64,000 bases of DNA from an uncultured Verrucomicrobiae bacterium (GCA_963836755.1 CAWIKF010000002.1:608001-672000); one strand, 5' to 3'. Counted from the stretch's first letter, positions 2,684-18,721 are shown. A program made the numbers and translations. Notes: generated by a model not told the origin, from the letters alone.

Positions 2684-3838
2684 ATGAGCAGCATCAACGC
2701 CGAAACTGAGGTCAAACGCCGTTACTCCCACGCGGCAAAAGTGCAGGAGGCGCAACTTTGCTGCCCGGTCGACTACGACAAAAAATTCCTCGAGGCGATC
2801 CCGGCGGAGGTCGTCGAAAAAGATTACGGCTGCGGCGACCCGAGCAAATATTTGAGGCCCGGCGAGACAGTGCTCGATCTCGGCTCCGGAACGGGAAAGA
2901 TCTGTTTCATCGCCGCGCAAGTCGTCGGGCCGACCGGACGGATCATCGGCGTCGACATGACCGATGAGATGCTGGAAGTGGCGCGACGAAATGCGCCAAT
3001 CGTCGCGGAGCGGATCGGCTACTCAAACGTGGAGTTTCGCAAAGGCTACATCCAGGACCTTGCTCTCGACTTGGAACTGCTCGACCGCGAGCTGCAAAAA
3101 AATCCGATCAGCGACATCGCGTCCTTCGTCGCCGCAAATGAGCGCGCGGAGGATATCCGGATTAAAAATCCGTTGATTGCATCGGACTCTGTCGACGTGG
3201 TTGTTTCCAACTGCGTGCTCAACCTTGTGGATGCAAAGTGCAAGCGGCAGCTATTCGAGGAAATCTTTCGCGTCTTGAAAAAAGGAGGCCGCGCGGTGAT
3301 CTCAGACATCGTTTCCGACGAGCCGGTGCCGGAGGAGATGCAGCAGGATCCGGAGCTATGGTCAGGATGCATTTCTGGCGCCTTGACGGAAGAAGGTTTC
3401 CTCAAAGCGTTTTCAGACGCCGGTTTTTACGGGATTGAAGTGCTGAAGTTTGATTCCATTCCATGGCGGACGGTGCAGGGTATCGAGTTTCGTTCGGTGA
3501 CGGTGCAGGCTATCAAAGGAAAGCAAGGTCCGTGCTTTGAAAGGAACCAGGCAGTCATCTACAAAGGTCCTTTCAAGGAAGTGCTCGATGACGACGGTCA
3601 TCGTATGGAGCGCGGCCGACGCTACGCGGTTTGCGATAAGACCTACAACCTTTACCGGAAGCAGCCTTATAACTCTTACTTCGAATTTCTGGAGCCTTTG
3701 ACGGATATCCCACTCGAAGAGGCGAAGCCTTTTGATTGTTCGCGCACTGCACTGCGGCACCCGAAGGAAACGAAAGGCCAGGACTACTCCGTCACGACCG
3801 AAGCTTCGGCCTGCTGCGACGCCGGCGGCTGCTGCTAA
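2684..3838 (+). CDS. arsM: ArsM-like arsenite S-adenosylmethionine methyltransferase (long form with C-terminal extension)
   Basis: [38 protein letters not shown] and WSGCISGA conserved Cys motifs; C-terminal [16 protein letters not shown]. Confidence 0.85.
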
Positions 3839-3839
3839 T

Positions 3840-4754
3840 ATGGCTGAGACCCCACATTCGCGGGACGAGATGGAGAATCTCGTCGAGAATATCGTCGAGG
3901 CTTCGAAGTCCGTCTCGCCCGAGCGCACCAGTTCCCCGAACTGGATCGCGGGAGAATTTTTCGGCACGTTTCTTCTCGTCTTCTTCGGTTGCGGAAGCGT
4001 GGCCACTGCGGTGCTGACTGGTGCGCAGGTGGGAATTTTCCAGGTTGCCATCGTCTGGGGACTAGGCATCGCGACAGCGATCTATCTCACCGGTTCCTTG
4101 AGTGGTGCGCACCTAAATCCAGCCGTCACGACGGCGATGGCGGTCTGGTCGGATTTTCCGAAGAGAAAAGTCATTCCCTACATCTGCGTGCAGTTACTCG
4201 GCGCGCTTGTTGCCTCGTCAGTGCTCTTCGGCATTTACGGAGATCAGTTGAACGCTTACGAAAAGGAGCATCACATCACTCGCGGCGCGCAGGGGAGCGA
4301 GGCGTCTGCGATGATCTTCGGAGAATATTTCCCAAATCCCGGCGGCAAAGCTCTGGACGATGCCGCGCGTGAAAAGATTTCACACTTGGGCGCCTTTTGC
4401 ACGGAGGTGGTTGGAACTGCCATTTTGTTGCTGGTCATCTTTTGCGTGACTGATGCGAATAACGGCACGCGACCTCAGATCCTAACCGCGGCCACGATAG
4501 GTCTTACGGTTACTCTGCTAATTTCTCTTTTTGGGCCGCTGACGATGGCGTGCTTCAATCCCGCGCGCGATTTCGGCCCGAGACTATTTTCCTCAATCGC
4601 TGGATGGGGATCGATCCCTTTCACAACAAATGGCATCGGCTGGCTCTCAGTCTACCTCATCGCGCCGATCGTCGGAGGCTTGGTCGGTGGAGGAATCTAT
4701 CGTGCTTTCTTCGCGCCAAGCTATTGCACGACGGTGAACGATAGCGAACGCTAG
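3840..4754 (+). CDS. MIP family aquaglyceroporin (GlpF-like)
   Basis: SGAHLNPAVT and FNPARDFGPR motifs (NPARD is the glyceroporin type); starts 1 nt after the arsM stop. Confidence 0.92.
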   Translation: MAETPHSRDEMENLVENIVEASKSVSPERTSSPNWIAGEFFGTFLLVFFGCGSVATAVLTGAQVGIFQVAIVWGLGIATAIYLTGSLSGAHLNPAVTTAMAVWSDFPKRKVIPYICVQLLGALVASSVLFGIYGDQLNAYEKEHHITRGAQGSEASAMIFGEYFPNPGGKALDDAAREKISHLGAFCTEVVGTAILLLVIFCVTDANNGTRPQILTAATIGLTVTLLISLFGPLTMACFNPARDFGPRLFSSIAGWGSIPFTTNGIGWLSVYLIAPIVGGLVGGGIYRAFFAPSYCTTVNDSER

Positions 4755-4772
4755 TCGGCAGTAACTTTGAGG

Positions 4773-5615
4773 CTAAGTCTGCTCCGGCCACGAAGGCCGC
4801 TGCTCGACGAAAGGCATTTCAATAATCGCCGGCAAAGCAAGTTCCTGCGGATCTTGATAAGCAGGAATACCGATGACCACATCACGGTTCGTGGTTGGCA
4901 GACGCAACGTGCGATGAAGCCAATCCCACAGAGTCAAGCCGCTCGACCAATTGGAGTTGGTTTCTCCTTCCAGAACGGAGTGATGAATTTCATGAAGACG
5001 CGGGGTGACGACAAACTTTCCCAGCCTTCTTTCCAGCTCGATGGGAAGTTCCACGTTAGAATGATGAAACAAGATTTCCATTAGCAGCGCTGTCTGCCAG
5101 ATCGAGAGAGCGCGCGGGCAAACTCCGATCAAACAAATTTGCGCAGCGCGCCAAAGGACGGATATCGTAAGTTCGCCAAAGTGAAATCGCACCGCAGTGG
5201 AAGCATCCATGTCGAGATCGACGTGGTGGACTTGATGGAAGCGCCATAGAAAAGGAACCCGATGAGTAAGGACGTGCCAAAGGTAAAGCGTGTAGTCCAG
5301 CAGTAGGATCGCGAGACTTATCTCGAACCATGAAGCTAGAGAAAACTGCTTCAGCAGCCCGATTCTCCGGCGTTCCACCCAGTGGGAAAGCGGTCCGGTA
5401 ACAGGTCTTTCAGCCAGTTGCAGAACGCCGGCGCTGATCCCGGCGAAGGCAAGATTGCGCAAGTCGCGCCGCGTTTTTGATTCCACGGAACGTCGTAAAG
5501 GTCTGCGAAGCTCCAGCACGACCAAACCTGCAAAAGTAGCTCCAACGAGCAATCCGTTAAGCCAGCCAGGAACACGTTTTGCACGAACATTTTCTGCAGC
5601 TTCTTCGCGTCTCAT
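4773..5615 (-). CDS. Sterol desaturase / fatty acid hydroxylase family protein
   Basis: His boxes YLWHVLTH, FHQVHH, FHHSN, HEIHHS and WDWLHRT. Confidence 0.9.
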   Translation of the reverse strand: MRREEAAENVRAKRVPGWLNGLLVGATFAGLVVLELRRPLRRSVESKTRRDLRNLAFAGISAGVLQLAERPVTGPLSHWVERRRIGLLKQFSLASWFEISLAILLLDYTLYLWHVLTHRVPFLWRFHQVHHVDLDMDASTAVRFHFGELTISVLWRAAQICLIGVCPRALSIWQTALLMEILFHHSNVELPIELERRLGKFVVTPRLHEIHHSVLEGETNSNWSSGLTLWDWLHRTLRLPTTNRDVVIGIPAYQDPQELALPAIIEMPFVEQRPSWPEQT

Positions 5616-6136
5616 TTGGAAATAGCGGGGACATCTGCGCGGTATTTTTGATCCAGCAAAGCACCCCACGATGAATCGTAGGGATGAACCTTGTCAGTCA
5701 CGTGCCCATCCTTAAAGACCGGTCGGCCTTCATTCACCCATTGGAAGATCGAACCTTTGAGATCATAGGCATTTTTAAAACCTGCTTTTTTCAGCGCCTC
5801 AACGAAAGCGCTCGAGCGATAACCGACCGAGCAGTAGGCAACGATAGCGGTATCCTTCGACACCTCCAGCGCGGAAGCGGGCAATCCAGGATCGATGCGG
5901 CGAGCGCCTTGCAGATGACTCACTTCAAACTCCGCGGGAGTGCGGACATCGATCAAGAGCGGCGGCTTGCGGTGAGGATCATGAAGCCAGGCATCAAGCT
6001 CGGCGGGCTCGATCTGGGCGGCATCTGGAAATTTATGACGGATCGTATAATTGAGCAAACTCCACCGAATGCTTTGTGCCGAAGCCACACATCCGATTGC
6101 CAACAGTGCCAGAATCGTGCAGGAGAGCACTTTCAT
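5612..6136 (-). CDS. Rhodanese-like domain protein with signal peptide
   Basis: LIDVRTPAEFEVSHLQGA, YCSVGYRS, LKGSIFQW; hydrophobic N-terminus. Confidence 0.88.
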   Translation of the reverse strand: MKVLSCTILALLAIGCVASAQSIRWSLLNYTIRHKFPDAAQIEPAELDAWLHDPHRKPPLLIDVRTPAEFEVSHLQGARRIDPGLPASALEVSKDTAIVAYCSVGYRSSAFVEALKKAGFKNAYDLKGSIFQWVNEGRPVFKDGHVTDKVHPYDSSWGALLDQKYRADVPAISK

Positions 6137-6239
6137 TTCATAGGACTTCTGATCGATTTTTCATCCCTTCCCAGTATTCGAGTTCAACCACCTGTTCGGA
6201 TGAAATGGAGTTAATAAAGATGATGAAGCATCGCTGCTT

Positions 6240-6914
6240 ATGATTTCGGTGATCATCCCGGTTTACAACGAAGCTGCTCATCTTCCTGCTACTTTAGCAG
6301 CAGTAAAGGCCGCCCCAGAACCGCACGAGGTAATCGTGGTGGATGCGTCGAGCAACGATGACACTCCTTCACTGGCTGCTTCATGCGGAGCTCAGCTTCT
6401 TTCCTGCGTGCGCCGCCAACGGGCAAGCCAGATGAACATCGGCGCGCGGCATTCCACGGGCGATACTTTTCTGTTTCTGCACGCGGATACTCTCCTTCCG
6501 CCTTCGGCTTTGATGAAAGTAAATCAAGTCCTGCGAGATCCGCAGGTGGTCGGTGGGGCCTTTGCGCGGCGATTCCAATCCTCATCGATTTTTCTGCGAC
6601 TGACTTGCATGCTTGCGGAAATGCGGAGCCGTTGTGCGGGATGGTTTCTGGGGGACCAGGCGATGTTCGTCCGGCGGAAGGTGTTTGAAGAACTTGGCGG
6701 CTTTCGCGATCTCGATCTGTTCGAGGATTTGGACTTCGCTCGGAGGCTGCGCACGCGGGGACAGGTGGTGACGTTGCGCCCGCCTGTATTTTCTTCAGGC
6801 AGACGATTTGAGCGCTTGGGGCCGATCCCGACGACCTGCGCGGATTTTTTCCTGACTGTCGACTACATCTGCGGCATTGAGCCAAACCTACTCGCGAAAC
6901 GTCATCGCATTTAA
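6240..6914 (+). CDS. TIGR04283-like GT2 glycosyltransferase (arsenosugar/rSAM-associated)
   Basis: ISVIIPVYNEA, RASQMNIGA, FLHADT, GDQAMFV, GGF...FED. Confidence 0.85.
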   Translation: MISVIIPVYNEAAHLPATLAAVKAAPEPHEVIVVDASSNDDTPSLAASCGAQLLSCVRRQRASQMNIGARHSTGDTFLFLHADTLLPPSALMKVNQVLRDPQVVGGAFARRFQSSSIFLRLTCMLAEMRSRCAGWFLGDQAMFVRRKVFEELGGFRDLDLFEDLDFARRLRTRGQVVTLRPPVFSSGRRFERLGPIPTTCADFFLTVDYICGIEPNLLAKRHRI

Positions 6915-6947
6915 GACCGAGTTCCACAATAGTTCATAAAGCGAGTC

Positions 6948-7577
6948 ATGCACATCCTTGAGGTTCCGACTGTTTGTTTGATGCTGAAAGCTCCGATCCC
7001 AGGGCAGGTAAAAACTCGCTTGGCCGCATCAATAGGAGCTGAGCATGCGGCGCGGATTTATCGACGATTGGTGGAACATCAGCTCGCCAACATTCCTCAC
7101 CGCTGGCAGATTCACGTCTGCTTTTCGCCAGTTGACGCACTTTCGGAAATGAGGGAATGGCTCGGACCGAAGCTCCAATATTCGCCCCAAGCCAAAGGTG
7201 ATTTGGGCGAACGCCTTGTTCACGCCGTTGACTCGGTTTTTAGGTCGGGTTGCAAAAGATTGATTGTAATAGGGGGGGATTGTCCGTATCTCGACGAGTC
7301 TACTTTGGCGCAGGCAGCAAAGGAGCTCGCGAAGGCTGACGCGGTGCTCATCCCAGCTTTGGATGGAGGATACTGCTTAATCGGCGTAAAGGCTCCGCAT
7401 CCCGAAATTTTTCGCGACATCGACTGGAGCACTGGGGTCGTCTGCGCGCAAACCGAAGCAAAGATTGCGCAAGCTGGATTGACGCTGATTATTTTAAATC
7501 CGCCACTGGAGGATGTGGATGACGTGGAAAGCTGGCGACGTGCGGAGCGTGTCGTCCATTCTCAACTTCCCGAATGA
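6948..7577 (+). CDS. TIGR04282-like (DUF2064, CofC-like) glycosyltransferase
   Basis: KAPIPGQVKTRL, QAKGDLGERL, IGGDCP, PALDGGYCLIG, DIDWST, DVDD. Confidence 0.88.
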   Translation: MHILEVPTVCLMLKAPIPGQVKTRLAASIGAEHAARIYRRLVEHQLANIPHRWQIHVCFSPVDALSEMREWLGPKLQYSPQAKGDLGERLVHAVDSVFRSGCKRLIVIGGDCPYLDESTLAQAAKELAKADAVLIPALDGGYCLIGVKAPHPEIFRDIDWSTGVVCAQTEAKIAQAGLTLIILNPPLEDVDDVESWRRAERVVHSQLPE

Positions 7578-7643
7578 TCTTCTCAGCTGTGATGCATCCG
7601 TGACGGGGATAGAGAGCGAACCAACCCAACACACGCCGACCTT

Positions 7644-8460
7644 ATGAAGACGAGCATCCTCCTTGGCATAGCTTTAGTAACTTTCACGCAAAGCTCAGCG
7701 TTTGCGGGTGAGAAAAACGTGGAAGTTAGTGTGCCGGCCGGCATCAATCACGGCGACTACGACCGGCTGCTGAAAAAATACGTGAACGATAACGGCTTGG
7801 TCGCTTATCAAAGTTGGAAAAATAACGCCGCGGATCGTGCAGCTCTGGAACAGTATATTGCGCAGTTCCAGCAGAAGGGATCTCCCGCCATAGGCGACGA
7901 AAAGTTTGCTTCGCTAATCAACGCTTACAACGCCGGCGTGCTGGAGTGGATCTTGCAAAAGTATCGGACAGAAAGCATCCAGATCTACAAGGACTCCTTT
8001 AGTGGAAAGCGATACAAAATCGGGAGCCAAACGGTCTCCCTTAACGATATCGAGCACGGGACGCTGCGGCCGCAATACGGTTACCGCACTCACGCCGCGC
8101 TTGTAGCGCCGCGAGAGTTGCCCACCTCTCCAACGCTCCGCCTACACTGCTGCCGCACTCGAAGAGCGGGACGCGCATGCCTATGAGGTATGGCTTGCAC
8201 GGAAAGACATGAATGAATTCAAGCCGCCTGAAAATTCAGTTGATATCTCCAGCATCTTCAAATGGTTCAAAAGCGATTTCGATGACGCGGGTGGAGTCAC
8301 AAAGATTCTTGCTCGTTACGCTCCTGAGCAATACCGGCAGTTCATCCGCGGCGGTAAATACGAAACGACTTATAAGACCTACAACTGGGGTTTGAATGAT
8401 CAGGGCGAACACGGTCACCACTACGGGACCACCAATCTTATTTTTGACAAGATATTCTAG
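7644..8460 (+). CDS. DUF547 domain protein, frameshifted near 8106-8118
   Basis: INAYNA...LNDIEHGTLR...HAALV continues in another frame as CPPL...SSIFKWFKSDF...YNWGLN. About 2 nt are missing in the CAAxSCP motif; sequencing error or pseudogene. Confidence 0.82.
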
Positions 8461-8511
8461 CCTAACTACGCCTAAGGCATCGGGAATTTTGGTGGCGTGG
8501 ACCATTGAACT

Positions 8512-9210
8512 GTGTTTGTGAACATTTTAAAGGGCCACTGGAAGTGGATCGTAATAGGTTTCATACTTTCATTTCTCTCAGCGGCGGCGACCCTGCTTCC
8601 TCTCAAAGAATGGGCAAAGACCTTTGTCGACCTCGTGCAGAGATTTGGTGCTTGGGGAGTCGTTATCTTCATCGGCATTTACGCTTTGGCGACTGTTCTT
8701 TTCGTTCCTGGCTGGATCCTCACCGTGAGCGCCGGCTTGATCTACGGCATCTTCGGCGGCACGGCTGTTGCGCTGATCGGAGCTACTATGGGCGCGCCAC
8801 TTGCCTTTCTCGTTGCTCGTTATCTGCTGCCAGGAAGGATCGAAAGTGGAGCGAAGGAGAATGACCGGTTCAAGAGTATTGACGAAGCTATTGGCAAGGA
8901 TGGCTGGAAGATTGTGGGACTACTGCGACTCAGTCCGTTGATACCATTCAATCTTAGCAACTACCTTTATGGTGTGACGTCTATCCGGCTCGTTCCTTAC
9001 GTGTTGGCTTCAGCAGTGGGAATGCTGCCTGGCACGTTGCTCTATTCTTATCTTGGCGCTGTGGGGAAAGTGACTGTAATTGGTGAAAAATCTGGTCACA
9101 GTCCCTTGCAGTATTTGATGCTCGCAGTCGGCCTGCTCGCTACCATAGTTGTGGCAATTTATGTTAGCCGTCTTGGCCGCAAAGCACTAACAAAGTCCGG
9201 TTCGACCTAA
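8512..9210 (+). CDS. TVP38/TMEM64 (DedA/VTT) family membrane protein
   Basis: LLRLSPLIPFNLSNYLYG, GMLPGT; multiple TM segments. Confidence 0.9.
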   Translation: MFVNILKGHWKWIVIGFILSFLSAAATLLPLKEWAKTFVDLVQRFGAWGVVIFIGIYALATVLFVPGWILTVSAGLIYGIFGGTAVALIGATMGAPLAFLVARYLLPGRIESGAKENDRFKSIDEAIGKDGWKIVGLLRLSPLIPFNLSNYLYGVTSIRLVPYVLASAVGMLPGTLLYSYLGAVGKVTVIGEKSGHSPLQYLMLAVGLLATIVVAIYVSRLGRKALTKSGST

Positions 9211-9234
9211 GCATAAGTGTGGGTCAGCGAGAGC

Positions 9235-10203
9235 TTATGCGGCGCTTTCCGCAGCGATGACGGCGACTGGACTATCGACGCGTTGCGCCGTGGCATGGGT
9301 CTTCATCGATTCGACAGCTTGCGAACCGACGTTGGAGCAAAGTGCTCCGAATTTATAGCAGGTGGAGCAAGCCTGATGATCCAGGCGGAATCCAGTGAGT
9401 GAGTCTTGAAGCGTGATTCCCAATTGTGCTCGTGGTTGATCGACGAGGACCGGGCAAACGTGGACTCCGCGATCGCTCACGATGCGGCTGTTGTGGCAAA
9501 GAAGTTGTTTCACATCATAACCGACCATCATTTCCTCGGTCACCCAATCGAACTTCTCATAGCCGCGATCGCGCGAAGCTTCTTCGCCGATCTTCAATGA
9601 TGGTAAAAGCTTCATGCGCGGACGGTCATAACCGATGGCGCGAAGGTGCCTTTTAAACTCCATGAGAAACTCCTCGTCATTTTCGATAGGCCAGGAACGC
9701 ATCGAGGTGATAATCGGCAAAAAGCCGTGGGCTGCGAGGAGCTTTACTCCAGCCATTGCAGCGTCAAAGGTTCCTTCACCACGGATGGGATCGTTTGTGG
9801 CTGGGGAGAATCCATCGATGCTGACACGAATCTCCAAGGAATACTTTGACTCGCCGCGAATCTGAGCGAGCCGCGCGACTTTTTCCTGCGAAAGCCTCGT
9901 CGCGTTAGTAAGAACAGTCGCCGGACCCGCCCCGAGCGTAGCTTTCAGGATCTGCATGATGTCTGGATTGATGAATGGCTCTCCGCCCGTGAAGTAGTAT
10001 TCCTTTACTCCCAGCTTTACCGACTCATCGAGATACTCCTTGAACTGCGCGAACTTCATCGGCCCGAAGGTATGGTTGTCGGGAGCGCATGAGATAAAGC
10101 AATGATGACAGCGAAGGTTGCAAAGTGTGCCGGAAATTTGAAACCATACCGCGTCCAGCGAGGTCAGCGGGAGGTAGGGGAAGCGAAGAGGCTGCTTATC
10201 CAC
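9235..10203 (-). CDS. Radical SAM enzyme, ArsS-related but non-canonical clade
   Basis: CNLRCHHC (CxxxCxxC), FTGGEPF, LTNAT, RVSIDG; extra C-terminal Cys in LLCHNSR, VCP and ACSTCYKFGALC. Confidence 0.85.
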   Translation of the reverse strand: MDKQPLRFPYLPLTSLDAVWFQISGTLCNLRCHHCFISCAPDNHTFGPMKFAQFKEYLDESVKLGVKEYYFTGGEPFINPDIMQILKATLGAGPATVLTNATRLSQEKVARLAQIRGESKYSLEIRVSIDGFSPATNDPIRGEGTFDAAMAGVKLLAAHGFLPIITSMRSWPIENDEEFLMEFKRHLRAIGYDRPRMKLLPSLKIGEEASRDRGYEKFDWVTEEMMVGYDVKQLLCHNSRIVSDRGVHVCPVLVDQPRAQLGITLQDSLTGFRLDHQACSTCYKFGALCSNVGSQAVESMKTHATAQRVDSPVAVIAAESAA

Positions 10204-10310
10204 GCGGCGTCAAAGTCTCGTTCTGAGGATTTCCGCCGTTTGGCCAGAAATCGGATTTGCAAAAGCGTGCGAGCGCCTTCGCCAGATTTCGTTTTTGGGT
10301 AGATGCATGT

Positions 10311-11105
10311 TCATGAAGTCAGCTCATCGGCGCGTTGAATGGAAACTGCTGCCTCGCTTGGCGGCGGCACGATGTTTTCGCGCAAGTTCCCGGCGTAATA
10401 GCTGCGATGCAAGCGTCCGGGCGGAAGCCCGCAATGAAACAGCGCGAGGAAAAAAGCGTTTTGCAGCGTCACTTTCCACGCACCCTGATCCATGTGCCGG
10501 CGCGGCGAGGTCTTCATCGGCGGATCCAACATCACGATCGCTCCGCTCCGCCGGAGTCGCCGTGAAAATTCCACATCCTCCATCAGCGGGATCGACGCGA
10601 AACCGCCGAGCCGGGAAAACATTTCGCGCCGCACAAAAATGCTCTGATCGCCATACAACGTCCCAAAAAGACGGCAGTGCAGCCGCTCCCATTTTTCGAG
10701 CCAGAGCAGGTGAGGATGCCGTTCGTCGAACTTCCGATAAAACGCGCCGCCGACGAAATCGCGCCGGCTCATCGCTCGCGCCAGCGCGGAGGTTTGTGCG
10801 CGCGTGAGGAGCGAGTCCGCATGATGAAAAAGCAGAACGTCGCCGGTGGCCAGGCTCGCGCCGAGATTCATCTGCGGGCCTCGAGCCGGTTTCGCGACAG
10901 TGCAGAATCGAACATTCTCAATCTCCGCGAGATCCTCGAATGTCTCGTCTTCGTTGACGCCGACGAGGATCGTTTCAAGCACGCCAGGAAAAGTTGCCCA
11001 TTCCTTTGCCAGCTCCGCAACCGCTTTGCTTTCTTTCCAGCACGGCACGATCAGGCTAATGGTCGCCAAAGATTCGCGCGGGCGGCTGACTTGATCGTTC
11101 TCCAT
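10311..11105 (-). CDS. Second TIGR04283-like GT2 glycosyltransferase
   Basis: RGPQMNLGA, LFHHADS, YGDQSIFV, GGFASIPLMEDVEF, TSPRR. Confidence 0.85.
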   Translation of the reverse strand: MENDQVSRPRESLATISLIVPCWKESKAVAELAKEWATFPGVLETILVGVNEDETFEDLAEIENVRFCTVAKPARGPQMNLGASLATGDVLLFHHADSLLTRAQTSALARAMSRRDFVGGAFYRKFDERHPHLLWLEKWERLHCRLFGTLYGDQSIFVRREMFSRLGGFASIPLMEDVEFSRRLRRSGAIVMLDPPMKTSPRRHMDQGAWKVTLQNAFFLALFHCGLPPGRLHRSYYAGNLRENIVPPPSEAAVSIQRADELTS

Positions 11106-11117
11106 TAAACTTTGATT

Positions 11118-11951
11118 TCAAAAACGGCCGCGCGCTCGCTCCTTTGCCGGCAGCACTTCGAGACAAGTAGTCCACCATCCCGTCTCAATAGTCTCGACGA
11201 ATTCCTCCGGCAAACGCTCCTGCCGCATCTCGGCCGCGAGACTTTGATGGTCGTATCGCAGCGGCACGAAGTCGACCGCGAGCGAGTCGCCGGCAATGTT
11301 TAAAATCGCATACCAGACGTTTGTGCCGCCGTCATTTGCGGGCCGGCCAATCGCGCCGCAGTTGACTACATGTTTCCCGTCCGCGACTTCGCGGTGCCAG
11401 TGCAAACCGGTGTGTGTGACGACGATGATATCGGCATGAAATTCGTCGCAAAGCCGCGCCAGGAAAGCATCCGCAGCCGATGTCTCCCAAAGAAATTCGT
11501 TCGTTTGCCGGGGCGATCCATGGCAAAGCAGAATGTCAAAGCTGCCGACGTGCAGCCGTATTTCTGCCGGCAAAGCTTTGAGCCAATCCTTATTTTCCAC
11601 TGACGTGTTTTTGAAGGTGTAATCGTAGGAAAGTTTCGCGAAATAGTTGTCCAGCGCGTCGGTGTAGCCGCAATGGCAATCGACAAGTCCGTTACCGACG
11701 GAATGGTCGTAATTTCCCTGCACCACCGGAATCGCGCTCTCCCAAAGCAACGGAAACACCAAGTCCGGGTGCGGTCCAAACGCGCCCAGGTCGCCGAGGC
11801 AATACGCTTTGTGAATCCCGCGCTTTTTTAAATCGTCGATCACCGCTCGCAGCGCGAGATGATTGCTATAAACGCCGCCAAAAACCGCGATCTGTTCCGT
11901 CGACGGAGCGCCGCTCATTCTCAGATTTTCGCGAGCTCCAGCGGTTGCCAT
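11118..11951 (-). CDS. Calcineurin-like metallophosphoesterase
   Basis: GGVYSN, CLGDL, QGNYD, CHGSP, THTG, NCGAIGRP; extra Cys motifs DCHCGY and WWTTCLE. Confidence 0.85.
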   Translation of the reverse strand: MATAGARENLRMSGAPSTEQIAVFGGVYSNHLALRAVIDDLKKRGIHKAYCLGDLGAFGPHPDLVFPLLWESAIPVVQGNYDHSVGNGLVDCHCGYTDALDNYFAKLSYDYTFKNTSVENKDWLKALPAEIRLHVGSFDILLCHGSPRQTNEFLWETSAADAFLARLCDEFHADIIVVTHTGLHWHREVADGKHVVNCGAIGRPANDGGTNVWYAILNIAGDSLAVDFVPLRYDHQSLAAEMRQERLPEEFVETIETGWWTTCLEVLPAKERARGRF

Positions 11952-12069
11952 GCAATGACCATTAGCAAAGATACGAAACTTTGTCCGGCGTGGGATGCAG
12001 GCGCGATTATTTTGATGTGTCGATTACTTGCAAGCTTCGCGCAGCCGTGATCGGCTGAGGGACTTTTCG

Positions 12070-13212
12070 ATGAAAAAAAGAATCGCGATCATTGGCGCAG
12101 GCCCGATCGGTATCGAGGCGGCGCTCGCGGCCACCTCGACAGGATTCGACGTGGAAGTTTTCGAGCGCGGCGAGCTCGCCGATTCCGTGCGAAAATGGGG
12201 ACACGTCCGGATGTTCTCGCCATTCGGGATGAATTCTTCGCCCGAAGGACGCGCGCGGCTGGAACGATGCGGCTTCGCACTACCGCAAAATGAAGCGCTG
12301 CTGAGCGGCGCGGAATTCGTGCAGAGCTATCTGACGCCGCTCGCAGAATTGCTTGCGGCGTCCATTCATCTTCACACTGAAGTCCTCGCCATCGGCAGAA
12401 AAGGAATACGCAAAACGGAAATGATCGGCGATCCCGCGCGTGCGCAGCGGCCTTTCCGGCTCATGTTCCGCGAAAAAGATGCAGAGCATTTTTCCGAGCA
12501 TGATTTTGTTTTTGATTGCAGCGGCACATTTCTGAATCCGAACCCGCTCGGCGACGCTGGTCTCCCTGCATTGGGCGAAATGGCGATGCGTGATTCCATT
12601 TCATACGGGATTCCTGATGTTCGCTATTTTTCCGGCCGACGGATTTTGGTGGTTGGCGGCGGACATTCCGCGGCGACGCTGGTTCGCGGTCTTTCCGAGG
12701 TCGGCGCGGCGATGACGTGGTCGATCCGCAAGTCACTTGCAGTTCCATGCTCGCGCATTCCCGACGATCCTCTCACGGCGCGCGATGAACTTTCACGCGA
12801 AGCGAATGCGATCGCGGAGAAGATCGATTTTCGCCCCGGCACAACGGTTCAGGCCGTTCGAAAAAATGGATCAGGTGTGTCGGTCCTTTTGGAGCGCGAC
12901 GGCGCCGAGGAAAATCTGCACGTCGATCACATCCTCGCCGCGACCGGATTTCGACCGGATCCAAATCTCGCGCGCGAGCTACAAGTGCAGACCTGCTGGG
13001 CCACGGAAGGCGCTTACCATCTCGCTGCGCAGCTCCTCGGCGAAGAAGCCGGTGACTGCCTCGCGGCACCGATGAGCGGAGTGGAGACGCTGTTTCATCC
13101 CGAGCCGGGCTACTTCATTCTCGGCATGAAAAGTTACGGACGCAGTCCCGATTTTTTGATTCGCACCGGTCATCAGCAAATTGCCGCGGTGCTCGCTCAC
13201 TTGGAAAAATAG
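12070..13212 (+). CDS. FAD/NAD(P)-dependent oxidoreductase (flavoprotein monooxygenase-like)
   Basis: IIGAGPIG, WGHVRMFSP, VVGGGHSA, ATGFRPD, LGMKSYGR; resembles flavoproteins found in ars neighbourhoods. Confidence 0.8.
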   Translation: MKKRIAIIGAGPIGIEAALAATSTGFDVEVFERGELADSVRKWGHVRMFSPFGMNSSPEGRARLERCGFALPQNEALLSGAEFVQSYLTPLAELLAASIHLHTEVLAIGRKGIRKTEMIGDPARAQRPFRLMFREKDAEHFSEHDFVFDCSGTFLNPNPLGDAGLPALGEMAMRDSISYGIPDVRYFSGRRILVVGGGHSAATLVRGLSEVGAAMTWSIRKSLAVPCSRIPDDPLTARDELSREANAIAEKIDFRPGTTVQAVRKNGSGVSVLLERDGAEENLHVDHILAATGFRPDPNLARELQVQTCWATEGAYHLAAQLLGEEAGDCLAAPMSGVETLFHPEPGYFILGMKSYGRSPDFLIRTGHQQIAAVLAHLEK

Positions 13213-13265: not shown

Positions 13266-14645
13266 ATGTCACTGCTCATCAAAAACGGCGAGATCGTCAC
13301 GGCCGACGAGCGCTTTGTGGCGGATATTTTTTGCGAGGACGAAACGATCACGCGCATCGGTCGCAACCTCGAGACGCCGCCTGGCTGCGAAGTGATCGAT
13401 GCCGCGGGAATGTATGTCTTCCCCGGATTCATCGATCCGCACGTGCACATTTATTTGCCGTTTATGGGGACGTTTGCAAAGGACACGCATGAGACTGCAA
13501 GCCGCGCGGCGCTCATCGGCGGGACGACGACTTTCATTGAAATGATATGCCCCGCGCGCGGCGATCGGGCGCTGGAGGCATTCGAGCTTTGGCTCGGAAA
13601 GGCGCAGGGAACGAGCGCGTGCGACTTCACGTTTCACATGGGCGTCACGCGTTACGACGAGGAAACGGAGCGCGATCTCGAAGAAATCGTCCGGCGCGGA
13701 GTGGCGAGTTTCAAAGTTTTTCTCGCTTACAGAGGCGCCTTCGGAGTGACCGATGAGGAGCTATACAAAACGTTAACGCTCGCTCGCAAACTCGGCGTCA
13801 TCACCACCGCGCATTGCGAGAATGCGGACCTCGTTCTGGAGCTGCAGAAAAAACTCCTCGCCGAGGGAAAGACCGGTCCGGAATGGCACTACTGGAGCCG
13901 TCCGCCGGCAGTTGAGGCGGAAGGCGTGCATCATTTGACCACGTTTGCCGGCATCACTGGCGCGCACGTTTACATCGTTCATCTGAGCTGCGCGGAAGCA
14001 TTGCGCAACGCGATGCGAGCGTCGGAGCGCGGTGTCAATGTTTGGGTGGAAACTTTGATCCAATATCTGCTGCTCGATCGGACCGCGGCAGAGGCGAACT
14101 TCGACGGCGCGAAAAATGTGATGTCACCTCCGCTGCGCGATAAATCAAATCAGGCAGTGCTCTGGAACGCGCTTGCAAAAGGATTTGCGAGCACGCTGGC
14201 CACCGATCACGCGCCATTCGACTTTGCGACGCAGAAGCAAATGGGGCACGACGATTTCACAAAAATTCCGAATGGGATTCCTTCGCTGGAAGACCGTGTG
14301 AATTTGTATTTCACGCATGGCGTCAAAACTGGCCGCATCGATCTGCATCGTTTCGTGGAAACGGCGAGCACGAACGCGGCAAAGATTTTTGGCTTATTCC
14401 CGCGGAAAGGGACGATCCAACTTGGCAGCGATGCCGACCTCGTGGTTTACGATCCTGATTATCGCGGCACGATCTCCGCGAAAACGCATCACATGAACCT
14501 CGATTACAACTCGTTCGAGGGGATGGAAATATCCGGGCGGCCGCACGTGGTAACGGTTCGCGGCAAAGTCGCGGCGCGCGATGGAGAATTCGTCGGAGAC
14601 GCGAAACGCGGGCAGTTTTTAATGCGCCTGCCCACGCATTTTTAA
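13266..14645 (+). CDS. hydA: Dihydropyrimidinase
   Basis: PGFIDPHVH, SFKVFLAY, HCEN, SRPPAVEAE, MSPPLR, ATDHAPF, KIPNG. Confidence 0.92.
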   Translation: MSLLIKNGEIVTADERFVADIFCEDETITRIGRNLETPPGCEVIDAAGMYVFPGFIDPHVHIYLPFMGTFAKDTHETASRAALIGGTTTFIEMICPARGDRALEAFELWLGKAQGTSACDFTFHMGVTRYDEETERDLEEIVRRGVASFKVFLAYRGAFGVTDEELYKTLTLARKLGVITTAHCENADLVLELQKKLLAEGKTGPEWHYWSRPPAVEAEGVHHLTTFAGITGAHVYIVHLSCAEALRNAMRASERGVNVWVETLIQYLLLDRTAAEANFDGAKNVMSPPLRDKSNQAVLWNALAKGFASTLATDHAPFDFATQKQMGHDDFTKIPNGIPSLEDRVNLYFTHGVKTGRIDLHRFVETASTNAAKIFGLFPRKGTIQLGSDADLVVYDPDYRGTISAKTHHMNLDYNSFEGMEISGRPHVVTVRGKVAARDGEFVGDAKRGQFLMRLPTHF

Positions 14646-14677: not shown

Positions 14678-15169
14678 TTAGTCGTGTTTGCGGAGCGGAA
14701 CTGGTTTGTGCGGCAGGAACTTTTTCCCGATCAACCAGTCGAGCGAAAATATGCCCGGGCCGAAAACGAAAATCAGAACCGACGCCAACAGAAACAAAAA
14801 AGCGGCGTCGGAGACGAACGCATCGGGATCGTGAAAGATATTGAGCACCGTCTGTCGGCTCGCGGTGAGGTAGGCGACGCAAAAGTTGATGATCAGCGGG
14901 ATCGTGATCAAGCGCGATGCGAGACCCACCAGCAGCAAGAGCCCGCAAACGCATTCCGTGAGTCCGGATATATAAACATTCAGCACCGGAAACGGCACTC
15001 CCCATTCAGTGAAGCGCTGCGCCATCGCCGGCACGTCGGAAAGATGCGCATGGCCGGAGACGAACATCTGCCAGCCCCAATAAAGACGGATCAAAAGAAG
15101 AAGCGGCGATTGCAACTTGCTTGCAAGTGCAATCAACCAGCCATAAGCCGAAGCGAGCATTGGGATCAT
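14678..15169 (-). CDS. DoxX family membrane protein (bufferin BufD-like)
   Basis: LLIRLYWG...GLLLLVGLASR...GPGIFSLD; ATG overlaps the DUF2063 stop. Confidence 0.88.
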   Translation of the reverse strand: MIPMLASAYGWLIALASKLQSPLLLLIRLYWGWQMFVSGHAHLSDVPAMAQRFTEWGVPFPVLNVYISGLTECVCGLLLLVGLASRLITIPLIINFCVAYLTASRQTVLNIFHDPDAFVSDAAFLFLLASVLIFVFGPGIFSLDWLIGKKFLPHKPVPLRKHD

Positions 15170-16131
15170 TTTTGAAAGCGGCAAAACCAGCCGAGTGAAG
15201 TCCAGTTATCGAACCAATCTTTGATCTGCACCGTCCAGTCGACATCGACACGGGTGGATGCGGAAAGCGCATCAACACAGGCTTCCTCGACCGTTGCGCC
15301 GGCGCGAAGTGCGTTGAGAATTGCGAACGCTTCCGCGTCAAGGCGCTTGTAGTAAAGCATGTTGTCGTGACGGTGGACGGAGAGGTAAATGCACTCGCGC
15401 CGCGGGAGTCGGATGCGTTTTTTGCGCGAGAGATCGCGCGGCATTGCATCGACCACGTTGCTCGCCTCGCTTCGAAGAACGTCTATGTCGCGTTTTTTCA
15501 CCGCGAGCAAAAATTCGTCCACGGCAAAATTTACTTCCAAGAGTGAAAGGTAAGGCTGCAAGCCGAGCCGCAGCTTGTCCGGCGTCGTATCGAGCACATC
15601 GTCTGGCGTGATTGCGCGGCGTGCTTCGCCATCGAAAGCGACGACCTGTGCCCATTCGAAGCGCGCCATGTCGAGCGCGAGTTCTTCGCGCGGCGCGGTC
15701 CAGTGCGGTTCCTCGCGCAGGAATTGCTCGAGCCGGCTGCCGAGATTGCGCAGCGTGAAAGAGGCCGATTGATATTTCGCGAGATAAGCCGTCGCCAGCT
15801 TCATGAATCGGCGCTCGCCGAGCACCGCGCGGAGTCCGGGATAATCTTCGTAGAGACAATCAAGGATGCGAAACCAATAGCAGCGATTGTAAATTTCGAG
15901 CCGATCGAATGACGTGAGCCGGTCGTTCGGCTTGATGAATTGCGCCGCAAAATCGCGCATGTCGCTGCCGTCCGTCCAGCGCGGCTGCATGCGATCCTCG
16001 GCGGTAAGCGGGCGGAAAAGTGCGCCGGCCATCTGCTGCTGCAGATCCTTCAACCGCGCGCGCGAATGCGCATCAGGCAGCGGGCGAAGTGGCGAGCTGA
16101 TCGACGAACTTGTTGGCTTTGAGCGCTTCAT
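15166..16131 (-). CDS. DUF2063 putative RRE-containing partner of the MNIO
   Basis: RLEIYNRCYWFRILDCLYEDYP...LGERRF...DMARFEWA; directly downstream of DUF692. Start codon uncertain. Confidence 0.85.
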   Translation of the reverse strand: MKRSKPTSSSISSPLRPLPDAHSRARLKDLQQQMAGALFRPLTAEDRMQPRWTDGSDMRDFAAQFIKPNDRLTSFDRLEIYNRCYWFRILDCLYEDYPGLRAVLGERRFMKLATAYLAKYQSASFTLRNLGSRLEQFLREEPHWTAPREELALDMARFEWAQVVAFDGEARRAITPDDVLDTTPDKLRLGLQPYLSLLEVNFAVDEFLLAVKKRDIDVLRSEASNVVDAMPRDLSRKKRIRLPRRECIYLSVHRHDNMLYYKRLDAEAFAILNALRAGATVEEACVDALSASTRVDVDWTVQIKDWFDNWTSLGWFCRFQK

Positions 16132-16924
16132 TATGGACTTCGTCAAACGACGGGATGCGGTCATCCCATTCGAGCAGAGTGGCGGTGCGTCCGACGAGCT
16201 TGATCGCGTGCTGATACATTTTCCAGACGGGATCGAGCACCGGATGATCGTGCGTATCGAGGATGAATTTTTCGAATTTTGAATGCCCCGCAATGTGAAT
16301 CTGCCCGACGCGATGGTGCGGGACATTGTTTAAATAATCGTAAGGATCAAAATTGTGGTTCTGCGACGAGACATAGATGTTGTTCACATCGAGCAAAATT
16401 CCGCAGTCCGCGCGCTCGGCGACCTCGCTCAGAAATTCCCACTCGGTCATTTCCGATGCGTGAAATTCTGCGTAGCTGCTGACGTTTTCCACGCAAATCG
16501 GGACCTCGAGAAAATCGCGCGCTTCGCGGATGTTGTCCGCCGTCGCCTGCGCCGCGCCGAACGTGTAAGGCATCGGCAGCAGGTCGTGCGTGTAGCGTCC
16601 ATCGACGCTGCCCCAGCAAAGATGATCGCTGAGCCACGGCGTGTTTGTGCGCTTCACGAGTCGTTTTAATTTTTTTAAATGCTCGCGGTTCAGCCGATCC
16701 GCGGAGCCAAAATACATCGCGACGCCGTGCTGCACCACGCGGTATTGCTCGAGGATTTGGTCGAGCACTTCGAGCGGCCGTCCGCCATCGACCATGAAGT
16801 TTTCCGAGATGATTTCGAACCAATCGACGACCGGTTTTTCCGCCAGGATGTGCCGGTAATGCGGCACGCGCAGGCCGATGCCGATGCCGTATTCGGTAAA
16901 ATTATTGAAAGGATTTGCCGGCAT
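16073..16924 (-). CDS. DUF692 / multinuclear non-heme iron oxidase (MNIO)
   Basis: GIGLRVPHY, EIISENFM, HGV, SDHLCW, DLLP, ENVSSY, LLDVNNIYV, IHIAGH, DTH, LLEWD. Confidence 0.95.
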   Translation of the reverse strand: MPANPFNNFTEYGIGIGLRVPHYRHILAEKPVVDWFEIISENFMVDGGRPLEVLDQILEQYRVVQHGVAMYFGSADRLNREHLKKLKRLVKRTNTPWLSDHLCWGSVDGRYTHDLLPMPYTFGAAQATADNIREARDFLEVPICVENVSSYAEFHASEMTEWEFLSEVAERADCGILLDVNNIYVSSQNHNFDPYDYLNNVPHHRVGQIHIAGHSKFEKFILDTHDHPVLDPVWKMYQHAIKLVGRTATLLEWDDRIPSFDEVHNEALKANKFVDQLATSPAA

Positions 16925-16936
16925 TTTCTTTTGAAA

Positions 16937-17008
16937 GCGAGGGTCGGAGGATTAAACTCCGGCCCTCGCCAACAATGCTTCGGCCGCTCGCCGCTGGGCA
17001 AGCGGCCG
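16937..17008 (-). terminator. Two GC-rich hairpins between the precursor and MNIO genes
   Basis: GCGAGGGTCGGAG/CTCCGGCCCTCGC and CGGCCGCTCGCC/GGCAAGCGGCCG inverted repeats. Confidence 0.55.
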
Positions 17009-17019
17009 CAATGCTTTTG

Positions 17020-17295
17020 CTAGTGGTTTTTGCTGCCGTCGGTGGCGCAGCCGCCTTTTCCTTTGCAGGAATTTTTCCCTTTGCAGCCGTTGTCTCCGGA
17101 CTTGCAACCGCCCTGGCCTTTGCAGGCGTTCGCGCCTTTGCACGAATGTTTGTCGCTGCTGTCGGCCATCGTCTGGAGCGATGTGCCGGCTTTGACGATG
17201 GGACTGGATGTGGTGGATGCCTGCGCGCTCGTGGCGGCCGCTCCGCTCATCAAACCGGCGATTGCTGCGCCGGCGATTAGTGCTTTTGATTTCAT
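17020..17295 (-). CDS. Secreted Cys-rich RiPP precursor (bufferin BufA2-like)
   Basis: Signal peptide MKSKALIAGAAIAGLMSGAAATSAQA followed by the core HSCKGANACKGQGGCKSGDNGCKGKNSCKGKGGCATD (6 Cys). Confidence 0.88.
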   Translation of the reverse strand: MKSKALIAGAAIAGLMSGAAATSAQASTTSSPIVKAGTSLQTMADSSDKHSCKGANACKGQGGCKSGDNGCKGKNSCKGKGGCATDGSKNH

Positions 17296-17632
17296 GTTTT
17301 TGCTTCTTTCTTTTTGTTTCTGCTTTGTCGCTCCGATGCCGCTCCGACACACATCGAAGACAGATTGGAACGAATGTTTCCTATGCCGTTAAAGGCCGTT
17401 GGTCACTTCCATTATGCGCGAAGTGGTTGAATCCAGATGCGTATTTTCGCGGCTCCGCGGTTGTGCGATGGACGGGCGCCAGCGCGATGTTTGGGGAATG
17501 GCGTAAAAGTTTTCGCGCGAACGGCGTCAGCGAGCTCTGGCATCAAGGTTCTCGCGCTCGAACAAAATTCTCTGCGGCCGAGAACCTTGATTTTAGCTTG
17601 GCCGCAGGGCGCGGCCACTGTTTCATCGCGCG

Positions 17633-18721
17633 ATGTCGAGCCAATTCGGGCAGCTTTTTCGCATTGCCACCTGGGGTGAATCGCATGGCGGCGGTGTCGG
17701 CGTCGTGATCGATGGCTGCCCGCCGCAGATCGAGATTTCGCAGGAGGACATTCAGCGTGATCTCGACCGTCGCAGGCCCGGGCAAAGCGAAATCGTGACG
17801 CCGCGCGCGGAGGAAGATCGGTGTGAAATTTTGTCCGGCGTTTTTGAGGGACGCACGCTCGGGACGCCGATCGCGATGCTCGTGCGCAACAAAGATGCGC
17901 GGCCGGAGGCTTACACGGAGATGCAGACGATGTATCGGCCGTCGCACGCGGACTTCACCTATGACGCAAAATTCGGCATCCGCGATTGGCGTGGCGGCGG
18001 ACGCGCATCGGCGCGGGAAACGATCGGGCGCGTGGCGGCGGCAGCGGTGGCGAAGCAAGTGCTCAAGACGCTCGCGCCGAAGCTGGAAATCGTCGCGTTT
18101 GTAAAATCGATCCATGAGTTGACGGCCGAGGTGGACGTCGAGCGTGTCACTTTCGAGCAGGTGGAGAGCAACATCGTCCGCTGCCCGGACGAAAACATCG
18201 TCGGCCGGATGATTGACTTGATTAAAACGATGCGCAGCAGCGGCGATTCGGTGGGTGGCGTGATCGAGTGCGTGGTGCGTGGCGCACCGCCTGCTTTAGG
18301 AGAACCTGTGTTTGACAAACTCGAAGCTGATTTAGCGAAAGCGATGATGAGCCTGCCGGCGACGAAGGGCTTTGAAATCGGCAGCGGCTTTGCCGGGACG
18401 CGGCTGACCGGCTCGCAGCATAACGACCCGTTTGTCATGCGCGAAGGCGCGGTGCACACGGCGGCGAACCGCTCCGGCGGCGTGCAGGGCGGCATCAGCA
18501 ACGGCGAGCCGATTTTTTTCCGCATCGCATTTAAACCGACCGCGACGATCGCGCACAAGCAGCAGACCGTGACGACGGCGGGCGATGAAGTGGAACTTTC
18601 CGCGCGCGGGCGTCACGACCCGTGCGTGCTGCCGCGCGCCGTGCCGATGGTCGAGGCGATGGCTGCGCTGGTTTTGTGCGACCACGCGTTGCGCCAGCGC
18701 GCGCTATGTGGAAAAGTATGA
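17633..18721 (+). CDS. aroC: Chorismate synthase
   Basis: [38 protein letters not shown]. Confidence 0.97.

Follow-up and report, generated by a model that had tools for sequence, protein, structure and literature searches.

A verrucomicrobial arsenosugar-type gene cluster with a three-gene core that may replace ArsS

The window considered here is a stretch of 64,000 nucleotides from an uncultured Verrucomicrobiae bacterium (GCA_963836755.1 CAWIKF010000002.1:608001-672000), in which twelve genes at 2684-13212 appear to form an arsenosugar-type set. Nine of them are ordinary companions of ArsS, the radical S-adenosylmethionine (SAM) enzyme of the known ArsM-ArsS pathway, because all nine genes or families recur near ArsS in relatives. 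The distinctive part is a core of three genes, encoding a radical SAM enzyme (designated rSAM-X), a phosphoesterase-fold protein and a flavoprotein that binds flavin adenine dinucleotide (FAD) and NAD(P). The chance that this core replaces the absent ArsS, and that it adenosylates trivalent methylarsenic as ArsS does, is put at about even; the position, partners and cysteine pattern of rSAM-X make the chemistry of ArsS the most likely one for it.

To our knowledge, few enzymes make carbon-arsenic bonds, and we know of no assignment for the steps that follow dimethylarsinoyl-adenosine (DDMAA) in arsenosugar synthesis. The bacterial carbon-arsenic routes named in one source are methyltransferases, ArsS, ArsL and the bisenarsan route (PMC12159101). 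ArsS, according to two others, adenosylates trivalent dimethylarsenic, DMAs(III), to DDMAA (PMC13598754; bioRxiv 10.64898/2026.04.29.721666). A literature search, with most subscription papers and supplements outside its reach, returned no description of the rSAM-X family or of an exchange of ArsS.

The core genes and their partners

A scan of GTDB for relatives of rSAM-X gave at least 589 stretches, and locus counts were taken from the best 80, which come from Verrucomicrobiota, Planctomycetota, Bacteroidota, Gemmatimonadota, Calditrichota and other phyla. A close phosphoesterase is found in 66 of these loci, the flavoprotein in 48, a TIGR04282-like gene in 30 and ArsM, within 10 kb, in 16; other companions are rarer (DUF547 6, reductase 6, DedA 5, TIGR04283 5, ArsR 3, hydroxylase 2, rhodanese 2, aquaglyceroporin of the MIP family 2). 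Five of the 14 loci without a phosphoesterase end less than 500 bases from rSAM-X. In a comparison set of 20 ArsS loci from relatives, with neighbours counted within about 10 kb, ArsM occurs in 17, TIGR04283-like genes in 10, DUF547 and TIGR04282-like genes in 9 each, a second radical SAM gene in 8, rhodanese in 5, DedA and the reductase in 4 each, and the hydroxylase and MIP in one each; neither the flavoprotein nor a close phosphoesterase occurs in any of the 20. Two ArsS loci (L130/L131) hold rhodanese, TIGR04282, DUF547, DedA, the reductase, two TIGR04283 genes, the second radical SAM gene and ArsM. The original prediction of an expanded pathway does not survive this comparison: every non-core gene or family has its counterpart within about 10 kb of ArsS, and the window is short of two usual members, the second radical SAM and a reductase resembling MerA and lipoamide dehydrogenase. 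Nor do the counts favour its proposal of lipid tailoring, the hydroxylase being present in only 2/80 rSAM-X loci and 1/20 ArsS loci.

The association extends to whole genomes. Among 122 genomes of the host's family, each at least 80% complete, ArsM is present in 45, ArsS in 40, rSAM-X in six, the phosphoesterase in seven and the flavoprotein in nine. Of the 45 with ArsM, 37 carry ArsS, five carry rSAM-X and none carries both, so that 42/45 have one of the two enzymes; one of the remaining three (G395, a fragmented assembly) has the phosphoesterase and the flavoprotein. Among the 82 genomes without ArsS, ArsM accompanies rSAM-X in 5/6 and is found in 3/76 of those without rSAM-X (Fisher p ~1e-5, with kin not independent). 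The flavoprotein is present in 6/6 rSAM-X genomes and 0/40 ArsS genomes, the phosphoesterase in 5/6 and 1/40. Representatives chosen at 50% identity also include fusions of rSAM-X with ArsM (P0134 and P0227), with TIGR04282 (P0264, 163.6 bits, over the cut-off) and with the flavoprotein (P0122 and P0124), the last of these being seen in L091 too. The GTDB loci, the family profile and the fusions thus bear out the expectation that the genes keep company in other genomes. A phylum-wide sample, with rSAM-X in 0/300 other genomes, was uninformative for co-occurrence. A further sample of 50 rSAM-X genomes, picked by the author from the 80 mostly for long flanks and containing kin that are not independent, has the long ArsM type in 27 and some ArsM match in 40. 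Strict mutual exclusion of rSAM-X and ArsS was rejected on this sample, three of the 50 having both.

The rSAM-X gene (9235-10203, minus strand) encodes 322 residues. The original prediction had called the enzyme non-canonical. Its motif is in fact the canonical CX3CX2C (C28-x3-C32-x2-C35, all three invariant in 29 close homologues), and what stands of the claim is that the protein is not ArsS: it scores 51.8 bits on TIGR04167, the ArsS model, against a cut-off of 300, and is about 21-30% identical to ArsS. The genome has no ArsS over that cut-off, the best score being 52 bits. A profile-profile alignment of 84 rSAM-X and 7 ArsS sequences nevertheless runs end to end over 272 columns (probability 99.5) and places C236, C250, C279, C282 and C289 of rSAM-X in register with ArsS cysteines, whereas a SPASM control profile aligns only to the first 137 columns. 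For the C-terminal part alone, hhalign gives ArsS a probability of 86.5 and the SPASM control one of 0.1, and a hidden Markov model (HMM) of this part matched 28/30 ArsS entries versus 3/22 other radical SAM entries. The structural model is of high quality (predicted local distance difference test, pLDDT, 92.7); a fold search found BlsE, SkfB and anSME nearest, at template modelling (TM) scores of about 0.55-0.6, with no ArsS structure among the hits and no functional clue, and an ESM Atlas search returned solely unnamed radical SAM clusters. On these alignments we read rSAM-X as a probable distant sister of ArsS, not as a member of it. It also differs from ArsL of the arsinothricin pathway, which likewise has a radical SAM gene beside ArsM: its motif lies at residue 28 and it has no CCxxC tail, whereas ArsL has the motif at about residue 209 and such a tail. 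The ArsL family was absent among the rSAM-X matches listed in family HMM searches.

Active binuclear metallophosphoesterases carry the ligand set DxH, GDxxD, GNH, H and HxH. The phosphoesterase-fold protein of the core (11118-11951, minus strand) has the fold of SapH and 3RQZ and departs from this set, one of the two metal sites being lost. In 61/61 sequences (numbering of the 265-residue form), G14 and Y16 form a GxY that replaces DxH, F46, Y69 and G170 are invariant, a Tyr replaces the general-acid His and a Gly the last His; the metal-site residues D42, N68, H132 and H168 are kept. Three cysteines, C80, C82 and C251, are likewise invariant in 61/61 and correspond to Cys92, Cys94 and Cys263 in the window protein. 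The housekeeping paralogue in the genome lacks the CxC pair, which in the core protein lines up with Cys74/Cys76 of ars-operon phosphoesterases from Adhaeribacter and Paraclostridium. Of four plasmid homologues inspected, three lie in ars operons and one beside rSAM-X. The counterpart among known proteins is Car1 of Rufibacter tibetensis, a phosphoesterase-fold As(V) reductase in which Cys74 and Cys76 are reported essential (PMC12124457, where Car1 is cited). The fold is common to both and the CxC pair was aligned via the ars-operon homologues, from which the identity figure of about 30% also derives, rather than from Car1's own sequence; the core protein differs from Car1-type proteins in its GxY and terminal Gly (61/61), in an extra WWTTC tail with a third Cys, and in its predicted docking on a radical SAM enzyme. 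Because one metal site is lost and the cysteines essential in Car1 are present, a redox role seems more likely than the dephosphorylation originally proposed.

rSAM-X and this protein are predicted to form a complex, with a score of 0.91 against 0.00 for the best control; the mark applied is reached by 116/157 solved pairs and 2/215 mismatched pairs. Contact agreement between runs is at least 95%, the partner's pLDDT is at least 93, and the modelled interface consists of residues invariant or near-invariant in their families on both sides, among them the partner's C-terminal tail next to C251; partner residues at the interface lie around Phe151 and at 253-261 (265-residue form). In two other loci (L029:7776-12937 and L030), what comes before the core is a gene of the ArsR family, another CxC phosphoesterase and an unnamed Cys-rich protein on the opposite strand.

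The third core gene (12070-13212, plus strand) encodes an FAD/NAD(P) flavoprotein whose family occurs in ars operons. The flavin enzyme ArsZ of such an operon is reportedly an oxidase of trivalent monomethylarsenic, MAs(III), and arsZ is said to be linked to arsK. There are 155 plasmid homologues, and the four inspected all lie in ars operons, two of them as arsR-FAD-arsK; identity to the ars-operon FAD proteins is 35-38% over about 93% of the length. ArsV, another flavin enzyme of ars operons, oxidises MAs(III) according to a preprint (bioRxiv 10.1101/2021.08.12.456183). Unlike the ars-operon flavoproteins (ArsV/ArsZ/ArsU, ArsO), the window protein has cysteines of its own and lacks their Cys-rich C-terminal tail, and it scores 27 bits on the ArsO model, whose cut-off is 425. 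A stand-alone paralogue, 47% identical, is found elsewhere in the genome (G000 C2:1589458-1590648), followed by a membrane-protein gene of the kind that follows the core in G001.

Arsenic methylation, import and a second copy of the cluster

The cluster opens on the plus strand with the ArsM-like methyltransferase gene (2684-3838), which shares the subfamily of ArsM from the ArsS loci of relatives (64-79% identity). Its Cys26/27, 50, 177 and 229 align with the cysteine positions of solved ArsM. None of the three main ArsM models scores the protein over its cut-off; the best match is the arsinothricin ArsM model NF040538 (349.5 bits, cut-off 500). In a quick tree ArsM sequences clustered by partner (three changes) with mostly weak support, and the window ArsM was not placed firmly. 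The aquaglyceroporin (MIP) gene (3840-4754, plus strand; TIGR00861, 189 bits, over the cut-off; two NPA motifs) starts one base after the arsM stop and also follows ArsM in L033, L038 and the ArsS locus L125; it is likely a channel for As(III) or methylarsenic. All three transferases pass their curated cut-offs: the two TIGR04283 glycosyltransferases of family GT2 (6240-6914, plus strand, 225.9 bits; 10311-11105, minus strand, 182.6 bits; cut-off 182) and the TIGR04282/DUF2064 CofC-like transferase (6948-7577, plus strand, 192.5 bits, cut-off 134). The ArsM cysteines and the TIGR04282 and TIGR04283 scores uphold the original view of an organoarsenic, arsenosugar-type cluster. They match the Synechocystis-type ArsM-ArsS pathway, in which TIGR04282 and TIGR04283 are the partners of ArsS; DUF547, DedA, rhodanese and the reductase are further companions in common. 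Several ArsM-family matches with one in-frame TGA occur in G477, G470, G461 and G480, and may represent selenocysteine forms of ArsM.

In the closest relative (L025), a closed chromosome, the position of ArsM and the aquaglyceroporin is taken by a porin, an ATP-binding cassette (ABC) importer and another DUF2064 gene, and no ArsM match was found in its genome. ABC or sodium-solute importers occur in 21/80 rSAM-X loci, often with a porin. Carriers in culture include Roseomonas haemaphysalidis 546, Adhaeretor mobilis HG15A2, Thalassoglobus neptunius KOR42 and Marinobacter adhaerens HP15. In the 50 rSAM-X genomes, the long ArsM type is present in 2/14 importer cases versus 25/36 others (p = 0.001); with any ArsM type counted, the figures are 8/14 versus 31-32/36 (p = 0.02-0.05). 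A strict rule of importer instead of ArsM was weakened by this much smaller second contrast. The binding protein of the importer resembles binders of 2-aminoethylphosphonate, under the cut-off, and Roseomonas has a phosphonate-type ABC set at the same place beside the core. From this exchange we infer that the substrate of the core is a methylated arsenical, either made or imported. A locus without rSAM-X (L146, in G015) combines a porin, an ABC importer and a close phosphoesterase, with ArsS and ArsM elsewhere in that genome.

The genome holds a second copy of the cluster (L019, at C2:369-376 kb), in which DUF547, the MerA/lipoamide-dehydrogenase-like reductase and the second radical SAM gene are intact, all three being damaged or absent in the window. 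Conversely, the second copy has no ArsM, MIP, hydroxylase, rhodanese or phosphoesterase, retains only fragments of both TIGR04283 genes and of the flavoprotein, and its TIGR04282 gene carries a frameshift. Intact rSAM-X and DedA genes are present in both copies. In the window, DUF547 (7644-8460, plus strand) is frameshifted: its alignment to the intact paralogue has one single-base gap near 8104 and another near 8116. The reductase gene is missing at 8460-8576, where about 1.5 kb is present in L019 and L025. At 10203-10311 (minus strand) lies what is left of the second radical SAM gene after an internal deletion; compared with L019, about 1.3 kb is absent at 10219-10228. The ratio of nonsynonymous to synonymous substitution rates (dN/dS) between the copies is 0.04-0.19, and for the two halves of DUF547 it is 0.12 and 0.04. 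About 3/103 tested genes in the assembly look frameshifted; in public contigs covering the DUF547 region, the longest piece among the matches listed ends at 8027, with no entry for an indel, and none of the listed matches was of RNA covering the window. Single frameshifts, that of DUF547 included, may therefore be assembly errors; kilobase deletions are less likely to be. Since the losses are complementary and each gene is intact in at least one copy, the state of the two loci fits selection on the whole set. The second radical SAM protein (L019:8750-10192, G000 C2 ~369.7-371.2 kb) has about 480 residues and no NCBIfam match; its gene neighbours TIGR04283 in 8/20 ArsS loci and, in L025, is in the same frame as TIGR04283; Roseomonas has the gene as well. 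It is a candidate for a downstream step of arsenosugar synthesis.

A possible pathway and competing explanations

If the core does the work of ArsS, the route might run as follows, each chemical step being our inference. As(III) would enter via the aquaglyceroporin and be methylated by ArsM to MAs(III) and DMAs(III); relatives without the window-type ArsM would import methylarsenate through a porin and an ABC or sodium-solute transporter. Docked on rSAM-X, the Car1-like protein would reduce a pentavalent methylarsenical by means of its cysteines and hand over the trivalent form, and the disulfide reductase of the second copy could recycle it. rSAM-X would then add the 5'-deoxyadenosyl radical, yielding DDMAA or a close analogue, and trivalent organoarsenic, whether product or overflow, would be oxidised by the flavoprotein to As(V), the less toxic state. 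Conversion of the adenosyl-arsenical to an arsenoriboside, a step also presumed for ArsS clusters, would fall to TIGR04282, the two TIGR04283 proteins and the second radical SAM enzyme; in this genome the full gene set is split between two loci.

Several observations weigh against a straightforward replacement of ArsS. ArsM lies within 10 kb in only 16/80 rSAM-X loci, just 39/80 show at least one of the markers ArsM, transferase, DUF547 and ArsR, and 10/50 rSAM-X genomes have no ArsM match at all. Across all 122 family genomes, the 0/6 overlap between rSAM-X and ArsS is not significant (p = 0.18), and three of the 50 sampled genomes carry both enzymes. In the profile comparison, the N-terminal score of the SPASM control (173) exceeds the full ArsS score (160); the C-terminal HMM scores weakly on ArsS (0.8-10.9 bits, duplicate entries included); and by whole-protein HMM score ArsS (52 bits) comes after several SPASM families and the Rv1681 family (84 bits). 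DUF3641, which we take to be the name of the Cys-rich C-terminal domain of ArsS, has no Pfam match in any of the 84 rSAM-X alignment members. The phosphoesterase and the flavoprotein are only about 28-38% identical to their ars-operon homologues, and ArsS works without either of them, so rSAM-X may do something different.

The most serious competitor, though distinctly the less probable, is that the core makes an organoarsenical other than the ArsS product, either with another acceptor (MAs(III), or As(III) held on the partner's three cysteines) or with another SAM-derived radical, as in ArsL; the shared transferases would then yield a new arsenic metabolite. This would explain partners that are missing from ArsS loci (0/20) and nearly so from ArsS genomes (flavoprotein 0/40, phosphoesterase 1/40), the low identity of rSAM-X to ArsS (~21-30%), and the retention of both enzymes in 3/50 genomes, which fits distinct products. 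The three invariant cysteines of the partner (61/61) also recall ArsL, in which three cysteines bind As(III) (bioRxiv 10.64898/2026.04.29.721666). What speaks for a like-for-like replacement instead is the near-exclusive distribution of rSAM-X and ArsS, the downstream genes they have in common and the shared cysteine pattern. A role of the core in salvage or breakdown is unlikely; in such a module, arsenosugars or methylarsenates from the environment would be taken up and then altered or cleaved, and ArsM would be an optional neighbour. The dedicated importers in 21/80 loci, often with a porin, the likeness of their binding protein to 2-aminoethylphosphonate binders (under the cut-off) and the closest relative, with an importer and no ArsM match on its closed chromosome, speak for such a module; it fits poorly with the direct fusions of rSAM-X to ArsM and with the presence of ArsM in 5/6 family genomes with rSAM-X. 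The same importer moreover accompanies ArsS (L136; L146 in an ArsS genome), and import fits the supply of a synthesis equally well.

Action on a phosphorus, sulfur or selenium analogue, with the arsenic link limited to ArsM, is more improbable still, even though Roseomonas has phosphonate-type ABC transporters beside the core, 41/80 loci lack all tested markers (ArsM, transferase, DUF547, ArsR), and the functions of TIGR04282 and TIGR04283 were assigned from context alone. Against it, each core gene has an arsenic link of its own (the ArsM fusions, the Car1-type CxC and the ars-operon flavoproteins), and an ArsR-family gene lies directly upstream of rSAM-X in L029 and L030. Least probable is a locus in decay that has ceased to function in its host. 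The DUF547 frameshift, two gene deletions, the fragments upstream and a broken second copy would suggest as much; the losses are nonetheless complementary, every gene broken or missing in one copy being intact in the other, dN/dS is 0.04-0.19, and at about 3/103 genes that look frameshifted the DUF547 break is possibly an assembly error. Replacement of ArsS by the three-gene core is our preferred reading.

Host, surroundings and implications

The closest homologues in homologue searches are labelled Verrucomicrobiae/Chthoniobacterales, in agreement with the verrucomicrobial host originally proposed. The host is a soil bacterium. The twelve contiguous genes of the original prediction are all present; DUF547 is frameshifted and the genes fall into five strand blocks, so the cluster is not a single operon. 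Its G+C content is 52-57%, against 58% for the genome. Apart from the genes described above, it contains a fatty-acid hydroxylase/sterol desaturase family gene (FA_hydroxylase, PF04116; 4773-5669, minus strand), an occasional accessory; a gene for a rhodanese-domain protein with a hydrophobic N-terminus (5612-6136, minus strand; NF045521, 102.7 bits, under the cut-off of 145); and a DedA/VTT membrane-protein gene (PF09335; 8512-9210, plus strand). As originally noted, arsR, arsC, arsB and acr3 are absent from the window: the three LMWPc and seven ArsR-type helix-turn-helix matches of the genome all lie outside it, and Acr3, ArsB and glutaredoxin-type ArsC were not found in the whole genome (96% complete). 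The combination that marks an ars resistance operon, ArsR with Acr3 or ArsB and ArsC, is therefore not what the window holds.

Scans for promoters and terminators stayed at chance level. A hairpin of 17 pairs upstream of arsM (2494-2534) resembles a tRNA-Ser 3' end, a run of 17 bases being identical to part of the tRNA-Ser(CGA) gene (C2:585402-585491), and may be a terminator or an old attachment site; for a tRNA attachment site, this match is the evidence, and the support is weak. Further upstream (1789-2388), short open reading frame fragments resemble the remains of a membrane-protein gene and coincide with a step in G+C from 66% to 54%. Downstream, a dihydropyrimidinase gene (13266-14645; TIGR02033, over the cut-off) directly follows the flavoprotein gene, and a chorismate-synthase-like gene, recognised by eye, lies at 17633-18721; neither shows signs of belonging to the cluster. 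Between them (14678-17352, minus strand) is a Bufferin-type cluster for a ribosomally synthesised and post-translationally modified peptide, of a known kind, with a BufA2-like precursor, an MNIO maturase (NF050167, 346.6 bits, cut-off 310), an HvfC-like protein and DoxX.

The core is likely a second, widespread bacterial way to build organic arsenic compounds. Since the ArsS model does not detect rSAM-X, carriers of this enzyme would be underestimated in surveys of organoarsenic producers. The complementary losses between the two copies indicate which accessory genes are required, the second radical SAM enzyme among them, and the core itself provides a small testable unit, a pair of proteins with named cysteines for which binding is predicted. 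The exchange of importer for ArsM suggests that methylated arsenic is taken up deliberately, a point relevant to what becomes of dimethylarsenate in soils and waters. More speculatively, and less likely than not, the core could be a fourth microbial carbon-arsenic route beyond simple methylation, after ArsS, ArsL and bisenarsan, in which a reductase-radical SAM complex captures methylarsenate, produced in-house or imported, and builds an undescribed arsenic metabolite in hundreds of species from soil, fresh water and the sea; if so, many bacteria would scavenge methylated arsenic as a building block.

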